Source: Chiloscyllium plagiosum (lineage: Eukaryota). From it: a stretch of DNA of 64,000 nt. Of this stretch, positions 22,664 through 64,000 are shown piece after piece; positions within the stretch are counted from its first letter, which is position 1; each line of letters starts with the position of its first letter. Where the stretch lies: contig NC_057710.1 of assembly GCF_004010195.1 (NCBI RefSeq), forward strand, positions 153,709,110 through 153,773,109, written 5' to 3'. A program made the translations under genes and the position numbers. Under the pieces are notes generated by a model. The model was given only the letters and a program-made list of their open reading frames with translations. It was not told the origin of the DNA and searched no databases.

Positions 22664-23092
22664 TTTCTCGAACTCAGCACCACCTTCCTAAACTACAATC
22701 TTCTTCCTGACCTCTCCGCCCCCACCCCACTCTAACCTATCACCCTCACCTTAACCTCCTTCCACCTATCGCATTTCCAACGCCCCTCCCCCAAGTCCCT
22801 CCTCCCTACCTTTGGTGACCGCTTCACTGAACGTGGAGAAAGTGAGGTCTGCAGATGCTGGAGATCAGAGCTGAAAATGTGTTGCTGGTAAAGCACAGCA
22901 GGTCAGGCAGCATCCAAGGAACAGGAGAATCGACGTTTCGGGCATAAGCCCTTCATCAGGAATCCTGATGAAGGGCTTATGCCCGAAACGTCGATTCTCC
23001 TGTTCCTTGGATGCTGCCTGACCTGCTGTGCTTTACCAGCAACACATTTTCAGCTCTGATCTCCAGCATCTGCAGACCTCACTTTCTCCACG
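22664..23092 (+). mobile_element. Young PLE 3' fragment with an inverted duplication of its end
   Basis: About 22726-22812 is near-identical to 59108-59194; the 3' end matches 59227-59353. Confidence 0.8.
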
Positions 23093-38223: not shown

Positions 38224-38414
38224 TAAAAGCAAATTACTGCGGATGCTGGAATCTGAAACCAAAAGAGAAAATGCTGGAAAATCTCAGCAGGTCTGGCAGC
38301 ATCTGTAAGGAGAGAAAAGAGCTGACATTTCGAGTCTAACTGACGGGTCAGCTCTTTTCTCTCCTTACAGATGCTGCCAGACCTGCTGAGATTTTCCAGC
38401 ATTTTCTCTTTTGG
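38224..38414. mobile_element. Fold-back mini-element derived from a PLE 3' end
   Basis: 68-bp perfect arms (38259-38326 / 38347-38414), 20-nt spacer; 14-bp TSD ACTTTGAAACTCAA at 38210-38223 and 38415-38428. Confidence 0.88.
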
Positions 38415-42457: not shown

Positions 42458-42677
42458 ATGGAAATGTGTTGCTGGAAAAGCGCAGCAGGTCAGGCAGCAT
42501 CTAGGGAACAGGAGAATCGACGTTTCGGGCATTAGCCTTTCTTCAGGCTGAAGAAGGGCTAATGCCCGAAACGTCGATTCTCCTGTTCCCTAGATGCTGC
42601 CTGACCTGCTGCGCTTTTCCAGCAACACATTTCCATCTCTGATCTCCAGCATCTGCAGACCTCACTTTCTCCTCAAA
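42458..42677 (+). mobile_element. Fold-back mini-element derived from a PLE 3' end, with hammerhead core at 42548-42580
   Basis: 91-bp arms (42456-42546 / 42548-42638, 1 mismatch); 16-bp TSD TATATCAATATGTTAG at 42442-42457 and 42678-42693. Confidence 0.9.
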
Positions 42678-49647: not shown

Positions 49648-50440
49648 AATATTTCCTCCCCACTCCGATCAGCATTCTGCAGAGACCATTCCCTCCGTGA
49701 CTCCCTCATTGGGTCCACACTCCCACCAACCCACCCTCCACTCCTGGCACCTTCTCCTGTCACTGCAAGAGGTGTAAAACCTGCACCCACACGTCCCCCC
49801 TCACCTCCTCCATCGAAGGCTCCAAAGGACCCTTTCACATCCAGCAAAGATTTTCCTGCACATCCATACACGTCATCTACTGTGTCTCTTGCTCTCGATG
49901 TGGTCTCCTCTACAGTGGGGAGACTGGACGCCGACTCATGGAGCATTTTAAGGAACATCTCTGTGACACACGCACTGAACAACCCCACCATGCTGTGGCT
50001 GACCACTTCAACTCCCCCTCCTACTCTGCGAAGGACAGGCAAGTCTTGGGCCTCCTCCACTCTCTGGAGGAAGAACGCCTCATCTTCCACCTTGGGACCC
50101 TCCAACCACACGGCATCAACATCGATTTCATCAGTTTCCTCATTTCCCCATCCCCTACCTTCTCCCAGTCCCAACCCTCCAACTTGGCACCACCCTCTTG
50201 GACTTGTCCTACCTATTCATCTTCCTTCCCACCTATTCCCTCCAATCTATCACCATCATCCTCCATCTACCTATCGCCTTCCCCCCAGCCCCACCCCCAC
50301 CCTCCTATTTATTTCTCAGCCCCCAACCCCCCACGCCTCTATGTTCCTGATGGAGGGCTTATGCCCGAAACATCGACTCTCTCTGCTCCTTGGATGCTGC
50401 CTGACGTGCTGTGCTTTTCCAGCACCACACTCTTTGACTT
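49648..50440 (+). mobile_element. PLE fragment (GIY-YIG + 3' end with decayed hammerhead at ~50343-50380)
   Basis: HVIYCVSCSRCGLLYSGETGR-like frame, EHLCD...VADHFNS; ctgatggagggcttatgcccgaaacatcgac. Confidence 0.85.
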
Positions 50441-62838: not shown

Positions 62839-63499
62839 GCATGTTAAAAATACAACCCTAAATTAAATGTTCTGGTTTTGTTATAACTAGGTGGAAATTG
62901 CAACACCTGCGCTTGACAGACCTTCACTTTTAATCTGCTGACATACAAGCAATTTGCTCATGACTTTCAATAACTATTCAAATACTTCATAATATTCACT
63001 TTAAACATACTTATCTGATAAATTATGAAAACATTTGTTGAATATCAAATAACCTAAATATATCAGTCAAAATCAGACTATAAAGCTAATTCTTTACCCT
63101 GGTAATCCCTCACTCTGCAATATGAACACCAACTAAAAGAATGGAGTTTAATTTTGTTATGGAAGTTCTGTTAATCTCAGGATTCTAACTGCATGAATAT
63201 TTTAAATGGCTTCTGAATGAAATGCACTATTTTTGACAAATAAACCAGTGAAATAGTCCAATGATTTGATTAAGTCACTGAAAATGACCTGGAAGGTCAT
63301 AAATTTGACCCTTGGCCTAATCTGACGGTGCGTAACGTGGCACCATAATTGATGCCAACTTTCTGGTTTCGCTTCTTGAGCAAATCACTGAAACATGACC
63401 TCTGTGCGTGGAGACTGGATGTGGGCAGAATTGGGCTAGGTGTGCAATCCACATGAGGTAACAGTTGGCTGACATTCACCAAAGCACACAAATAATTGA

Positions 63500-63628
63500 T
63501 ATAAGAAAATTACTGCGGATGCTGCGGAGCTTTGACAAAGGGTCAGTTAAGACTTGAAATGTCAGCTTTTTTCTCTCCCTACAGATGCTGCCAGACTTGC
63601 TGAGATTTTCCAGCATTTTCTCTTTTGG
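63500..63628 (+). mobile_element. PLE-derived mini-element (same family as 38224-38414) with hammerhead variant at 63528-63567
   Basis: 14-bp TSD ACACAAATAATTGA (63486-63499, 63629-63642); same termini as the 38224 copy. Confidence 0.85.
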
Positions 63629-63822
63629 ACACAAATAATTGAGTTACCAAATCTCAAAACGTTTATTACTTTTATTTACCCAGGATCACAAACAGAGTGG
63701 AGATGATTTCCAAAAGGGAAATCCAGATGAGGTTGACAACAGGAAGTTTTGCTGAAGGTTTTCTACTGAGTAATTGGTGTGATTGACATAAGAGTATGTT
63801 CAAAAAGTGTCCATGAATTCAG

Positions 63823-64000
63823 TCAGAAGTCACACGACATCAGGTTATAGACCAACAGGTGTATTTGAAAAAAACAAGCTTTCGGAGCGCTATTCCTTCA
63901 TCAGGTGAGGTGACTGCACCTGGCTAAGAAGCAGGGCTCCAAAAGCTTATGATTTCAAATTAAACCTGTTGGACTATGACCTGTGTCATGTGACTTCTGA
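63823..64000. mobile_element. Imperfect fold-back element (50491 family); may extend past the window end
   Basis: tcagaagtcacacgaca...tgtcatgtgacttctga inverted arms; the minus strand near 63873-63907 reads CAC-CTGATGA-A-GGAATAGCGCTCC-GAAA-GC-TT. Confidence 0.75.

Follow-up and report, generated by a model that had tools for sequence, protein, structure and literature searches.

A hammerhead-like motif on the forward strand at 63528–63567 of the window, by which we mean the whole 64,000-nt stretch of DNA analysed here, carries a U3-A8 pair in its core, and raises the question of whether that pair is damage to a single copy, an accident of one expanding lineage, or a compensated change kept by selection. 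The pair between positions 3 and 8 belongs to the active hammerhead conformation. The reading we prefer, with a probability of about 80%, is that a Neptune-type Penelope-like element, of an abundant family, left here a short retrocopy of its leader that has since decayed and is probably inert; U3-A8 is family-wide, and selection on the active fold has likely preserved it.

The motif reads AGCT-TTGACAA-A-GGGTC-AGTTAA-GACTT-GAAA-TG-TC-AGCT, letter for letter as in the original prediction, whose AGCT...AGCT layout with U3 (63532) and A8 (63537) therefore stands. It comprises the 5′ arm of stem I (63528–63531), the core box U3 U4 G5 A6 C7 A8 A9 in its family form (63532–63538), stem II with its loop (63540–63555), the segment G12 A13 A14 A15.1 followed by a two-base stem III remnant, U16.1 and C17 (63556–63563, numbered as in PMC4209133), and the 3′ arm of stem I (63564–63567), which is backed by folding and covariation; the cut is predicted between 63563 and 63564. 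These boxes fit a minimal hammerhead, (3)UGAN(8)A and GAAA with a Watson-Crick 3-8 pair (U3-A8), U16.1 and H17 (here C17), and the extra base between 9 and 10.1 is present, as in minimal Penelope hammerheads. In a scan of both strands of the window for generic hammerheads, the locus passes with stem I and stem II, and the others to pass are a copy at 22965 with C3-G8 and a single poor match due to chance. Folding the locus yields both stems with a z-score of −1.7, against −1.8 for an undecayed family copy, which makes it weak evidence when taken singly. Its TTGACAA core is the sole one in the window at up to two mismatches, in agreement with the earlier statement that a single copy supports U3-A8 here. 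Rfam returned 17 matches across the whole window at E ≤ 5, all hairpin look-alikes and none from a hammerhead family; as it was silent at this threshold even for the C3-G8 hammerhead copies in the window, its models miss this minimal type. The motif is real and not a chance occurrence, since its undecayed 39-nt form has 639 exact copies in the 3.56 Gb genome and a reversed control has none.

The motif lies within a 129-bp insertion (63500–63628) bounded by identical 14-mers, the target-site duplications at 63486–63499 and 63629–63642. The insertion begins with a short inverted piece of the 3′ tail of the element (63500–63524, reverse strand), which in reverse complement agrees with the final ~25 nt of the family tail at locus L026, and its forward part opens directly with the hammerhead motif, the upstream repeat of the element being wholly missing. 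The first arm of stem I is thus the 5′ end of the forward copy and sits at the commonest 5′ boundary of the family, a likely transcription start. Below the motif, the element leader (63568–63628) continues to the nearer of the two 3′ termini usual in the family, and a 27-mer of this tail has 3158 exact matches in the genome. A sister copy of the same family occupies 38224–38344 on the reverse strand and breaks off within stem II, at the junction of an inversion; it had been described as keeping part of the motif at 38321–38344 (−) without the core box, and its sequence agrees, the core box having been lost where the two inverted arms meet.

Compared with the common family form, the copy at 63528–63567 shows three differences (C11.1→U, C15.2→U and one extra loop base), two of which are C→T. 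The G10.1-C11.1 pair and the palindromic 15.2-16.2 step kept in the family have decayed here to a G-U pair and to UG, where the family has CG, and both the wobble and the extra loop base are private to this copy. Given the G10.1-U11.1 wobble, the changed stem III palindrome and the absence of the promoter region, the copy is probably inert; we see no function for it, and as a find it is real but ordinary.

With private changes of this kind in hand, the locus could be read as a C3-G8 motif in which U3 and A8 are private decay as well. Genome-wide counts refute this and leave it a negligible probability. Leaving the seven core bases free gave 854 matches in the genome, and among the matches listed (100 of 854) 89 carry TTGACAA, 95 U3 and all 100 A8, and none CTGAnGA; the original prediction had turned on whether TTGACAA is the subfamily consensus, and among these matches it is. 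When the 5′ flank and stem II are fixed, U3 copies number 2237 genome-wide against 34 C3 copies, two of the latter with G8, and with the full 3′ half fixed G8 occurs in only nine copies (six U3-G8, one G3-G8 and two C3-G8, one of these two at a junction with the core of another family). The C3 copies form no subfamily: the 27 ungapped ones among 31 examined have no changes in common other than scattered ones and those of CpG type, and in many cases the opposite arm of the same insertion has U3-A8. No subfamily with this stem II and a C3-G8 or single-mismatch core was found in a genome-wide search. A core-blind sample anchored on the tail, taken from contig C1 (88 arms at 67 loci, after three overlapping ones were dropped from an initial 70), gave the same picture, with 46 of the 56 arms that reach the core carrying TTGACAA, none CTGAnGA, and two mis-parsed at a deletion. 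The U3-A8 family is also found in sequencing runs under four organism labels, in which position 3 has no alternative letter above the listing threshold, a test weakened by its closeness to contig ends, and position 8 has a single alternative, A>G (three of the 33 raw reads in run X20, two contigs in run X6). U3-A8 is the form carried throughout the family and is not private to this copy.

A few exceptional copies were seen alongside these. Two lone copies (L019 and L170) combine the family flanks with a C3-G8 core, slightly more than double back-mutation predicts; they may be relics of an ancestor or chimeras with a sister family, and are too few to make a subfamily. One chimeric junction was seen at L012. 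Many of the rare C3-A8 copies (L153–L181) coincide exactly with the point where two inverted arms meet in a hairpin, with U3 in the partner arm, hinting at errors made at the 5′ junction.

On its sequence characters, the source of these copies is an endonuclease-bearing Penelope-like retroelement of Neptune type. That the motif belongs to a Penelope-like element had been proposed from the window, and we found it linked to a frame with a reverse transcriptase (RT), a linker and a GIY-YIG-type endonuclease. At L110 and L111 the motif lies upstream of a long, broken reading frame, and at L102 a 612-residue open stretch includes the DKG motif and matches RVT_1 with E 1.6e-5, short of the Pfam cut-off. 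The endonuclease motif (VYC...YIG), recognised by eye, lies downstream of the RT, and Pfam gave no match to an 85-residue endonuclease piece. Between the two domains, L105, L106, L114 and L116 carry a CX4CX2C linker, which matches the CX2-5CxxC linker described as marking the Neptune clade (PMC8557442), so that the family is assigned to Neptune by its linker. All seven endonuclease stretches with a downstream motif (at six loci; 21 examined) carry TTGACAA, and the motif follows 350–640 nt below the endonuclease motif at L024, L102, L104, L105, L109 and L116. This places the hammerhead in a pseudo-LTR beside the reading frame, as in metazoan Penelope-like elements, and pseudo-LTRs, an inverted 5′-truncated arm and the optional 30–40 bp tail are all present. 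None of 20 loci holds an intact full frame. As RT copies are 93–95% alike and leader copies lie 3.3% from their majority, forming one homogeneous family, the burst appears fairly young but not current. The repeats have the look of those of a cartilaginous fish. Separately, copies at L006:1140-1510 and L089 fuse an RT coding stretch to the hammerhead at a near-identical point just before the YIDD codons, which may reflect a recurrent template switch.

Three sister Penelope families in the same genome retain C3-G8, with tails that differ from that of the U3-A8 family at 10/65, 20/63 and 25/62 positions. The majority lines of the four families differ in their core only at positions 3 and 8, besides the free position 7 and position 17 (C or U), while stems I and II covary among them. 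In a set of ten real copies, 96% of cells are paired, 6 of 11 pairs have changed on both sides, the 3-8 pair is CG in seven and UA in three, and pairing falls to 13–45% in slid controls; this set was chosen by hammerhead patterns and represents only four lineages, hence shuffle counts overstate the covariation. Once inserted, a copy decays neutrally, so that selection can be read only from how the master lineages differ. When the stems were relaxed to look for another U3 family, over motifs with the same stem III and cut-site bases, none appeared, since all 100 matches listed of 1510 belong to the U3-A8 family; judged by the matches listed, U3-A8 arose once in this genome, as one event and not thousands. 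That event probably consisted of two transitions in a C3-G8 master element, and as C7-G8 would have been a CpG, G8→A first and C3→U as its repair would be a plausible order.

The best reading of these comparisons is that selection on the active fold likely maintained the swap: U3-A8 is family-wide, and C3-G8 and the other core bases are kept in three sister families while the stems around them covary. The original prediction took the paired change to suggest selection for catalysis, and covariation among the four families favours such selection, with catalysis itself as an inference from it. The family offers a clean natural case of the 3-8 pair being kept in a retroelement ribozyme of debated role, with sister families in one genome differing in the core at that pair alone, and lends modest support to the view that Penelope hammerheads persist through selection for cutting rather than as passengers. 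Together, the U3-A8 and C3-G8 families make a ready test set.

The U3-A8 variant itself is already known, also from Penelope elements. C3-G8 covaries to U3-A8 in several natural hammerheads (Perreault 2011, PMC3088659), and U3-A8 ribozymes are reported to be active in vitro (Przybilski and Hammann 2007, as cited in PMC3088659); the covariation is like that seen here, but the examples in the available portion of that paper are not tied to retroelements, while ours belongs to a Penelope-like one. In the Penelope element Cercyon of Schistosoma mansoni, through which U3-A8 was found with ~1,300 genome-wide hits (Cervera and De la Pena 2014, PMC4209133), much is the same as here: a minimal type I motif in the pseudo-LTR, a short stem I, the extra base between 9 and 10.1, G10.1-C11.1, the palindromic 15.2-16.2, the U3-A8 core, and a genomic population of mostly lone truncated copies and opposite-strand pairs. 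The host and clade are different, however, and the Neptune-type family described here is homogeneous with a 5-bp stem II, whereas the schistosome U3-A8 hits are heterogeneous and the common schistosome C3-G8 families have stems II of 7–8 bp (PMC4209133). Minimal hammerheads also occur in the fish elements Neptune, Poseidon and Xena; they have no stable stem III and cut weakly, as dimers via an ACGU palindrome or with the protein of the element (PMC4209133). As far as the available text of that paper goes, U3-A8 is reported for S. mansoni only, and its supplements may list vertebrate cases. A literature search that covered mainly freely available papers, in their main text, returned no report of U3-A8 in a vertebrate element, and a 2026 retrozyme preprint is silent on core variants in its accessible part.

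How the copies begin and end suggests at which point of the RNA the hammerhead would act. In the core-blind sample, 50 of the 88 arms start at −6 to 0 relative to U3, and for 23 of these the starting base is the first of stem I; eight carry the upstream repeat. No arm has its start exactly where the cut product would begin, and two start three bases before that point, at a short overlap. A TATA-like box lies 31–35 nt above the first stem I base in 9 of 62 copies of the U3-A8 family, most of which are without that region, and near −31 in 5/9 and 2/16 copies of two sister families (L009, L052, L061 and L110, upstream of the motif; sister loci L136, L137, L145 and L146). As this is the commonest 5′ boundary and such a box stands ~31 nt above it in three families, the element RNA, judging from DNA, would begin with the first base of stem I; a cut by the ribozyme would then fall 36 bases in, and would be weak and made as a dimer or with protein help. 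A splice acceptor was considered as the cause of the boundary, where a pyrimidine run ending in AG resembles one, and is not favoured: the bases preceding the boundary vary from copy to copy, so there is no shared upstream exon. Run X20, a single-cell polyA library and thus a poor test of cleavage, contained 327 family reads with no listed pile of starts or ends and no splice joint, and run X21 contained none.

The two usual 3′ ends of the copies, about 100 and 135 nt below the start, fit the two internal start sites of Poseidon in Anolis carolinensis, where reverse transcription uses an uncut RNA template and the ribozyme cuts only with protein present (Frangieh et al. 2024, PMC11167929). By this likeness the stubs would be copies of the 5′ end of uncut RNA, reverse transcription starting ~100 or 135 nt inside the RNA and running off its 5′ end. 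The anole element shares the hammerhead in its pseudo-LTR, two internal RT start sites that give an optional tail, and the uncut template; it differs in its C3-G8 core and in a frame that begins inside the motif (PMC11167929), where here the first likely ATG lies ~170 nt downstream (L111), and by clade description it is without the Neptune-type linker (PMC8557442) present here.

This mode of copying bears on an alternative that we consider unlikely, in which the fold is kept for a role other than cutting, perhaps as promoter sequence, in protein binding or in recognising the template, while in the cell the U3-A8 motif would be no effective ribozyme. Copies derived from uncut RNA and a motif that overlaps the likely transcription start would both suit it, as would the behaviour of the anole element, whose catalytic mutants still insert in vitro, so that cleavage is not needed there, and in which no reads end at the cut site (PMC11167929), and of minimal motifs generally, which cut weakly and for which other roles are left open by the authors (PMC4209133). 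Against it, the 3-8 pair is part of the active conformation, an anole C3G/G8C double mutant partly restores cutting (PMC11167929), and the four families have each retained the remaining catalytic bases along with a base at position 17 (C or U) that allows cleavage. Both changes might also be neutral hitch-hikers in one expanding master element, their pairing a coincidence. In its favour, with one U3 family among the matches listed this is a single event, and each change is a transition, one of them explicable as CpG decay; yet the chance that two random changes in 15 core sites would make up any of three known pairs and leave it paired is 0.014–0.029, the other 13 core sites are unchanged while the tails are 15–40% diverged, and the swap is also found in Penelope elements of Schistosoma and in other hammerheads (PMC4209133, PMC3088659). 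We regard such a coincidence as very improbable.

Selection on the active fold, our preferred reading, could be extended to a specific role, which we put forward as a speculation of rather low probability: the hammerhead would form the first 35 bases of the mRNA, self-cleavage would act as a decapping switch that sorts copying templates from cut RNA, and U3-A8 would slow the cut and so have helped the family spread to thousands of copies in several related species.

Other Penelope families with C3-G8 cores are present in the window. Head-to-head palindromic pairs of minimal hammerheads from one such family lie at 22916–23009 and 42500–42600, with more single copies near 50345 and 59229. A further family, represented at 63875–63925 (−) and at L110:4060-4170, combines its C3-G8 core with a different stem III and cut triplet and often occurs in palindromic pairs.
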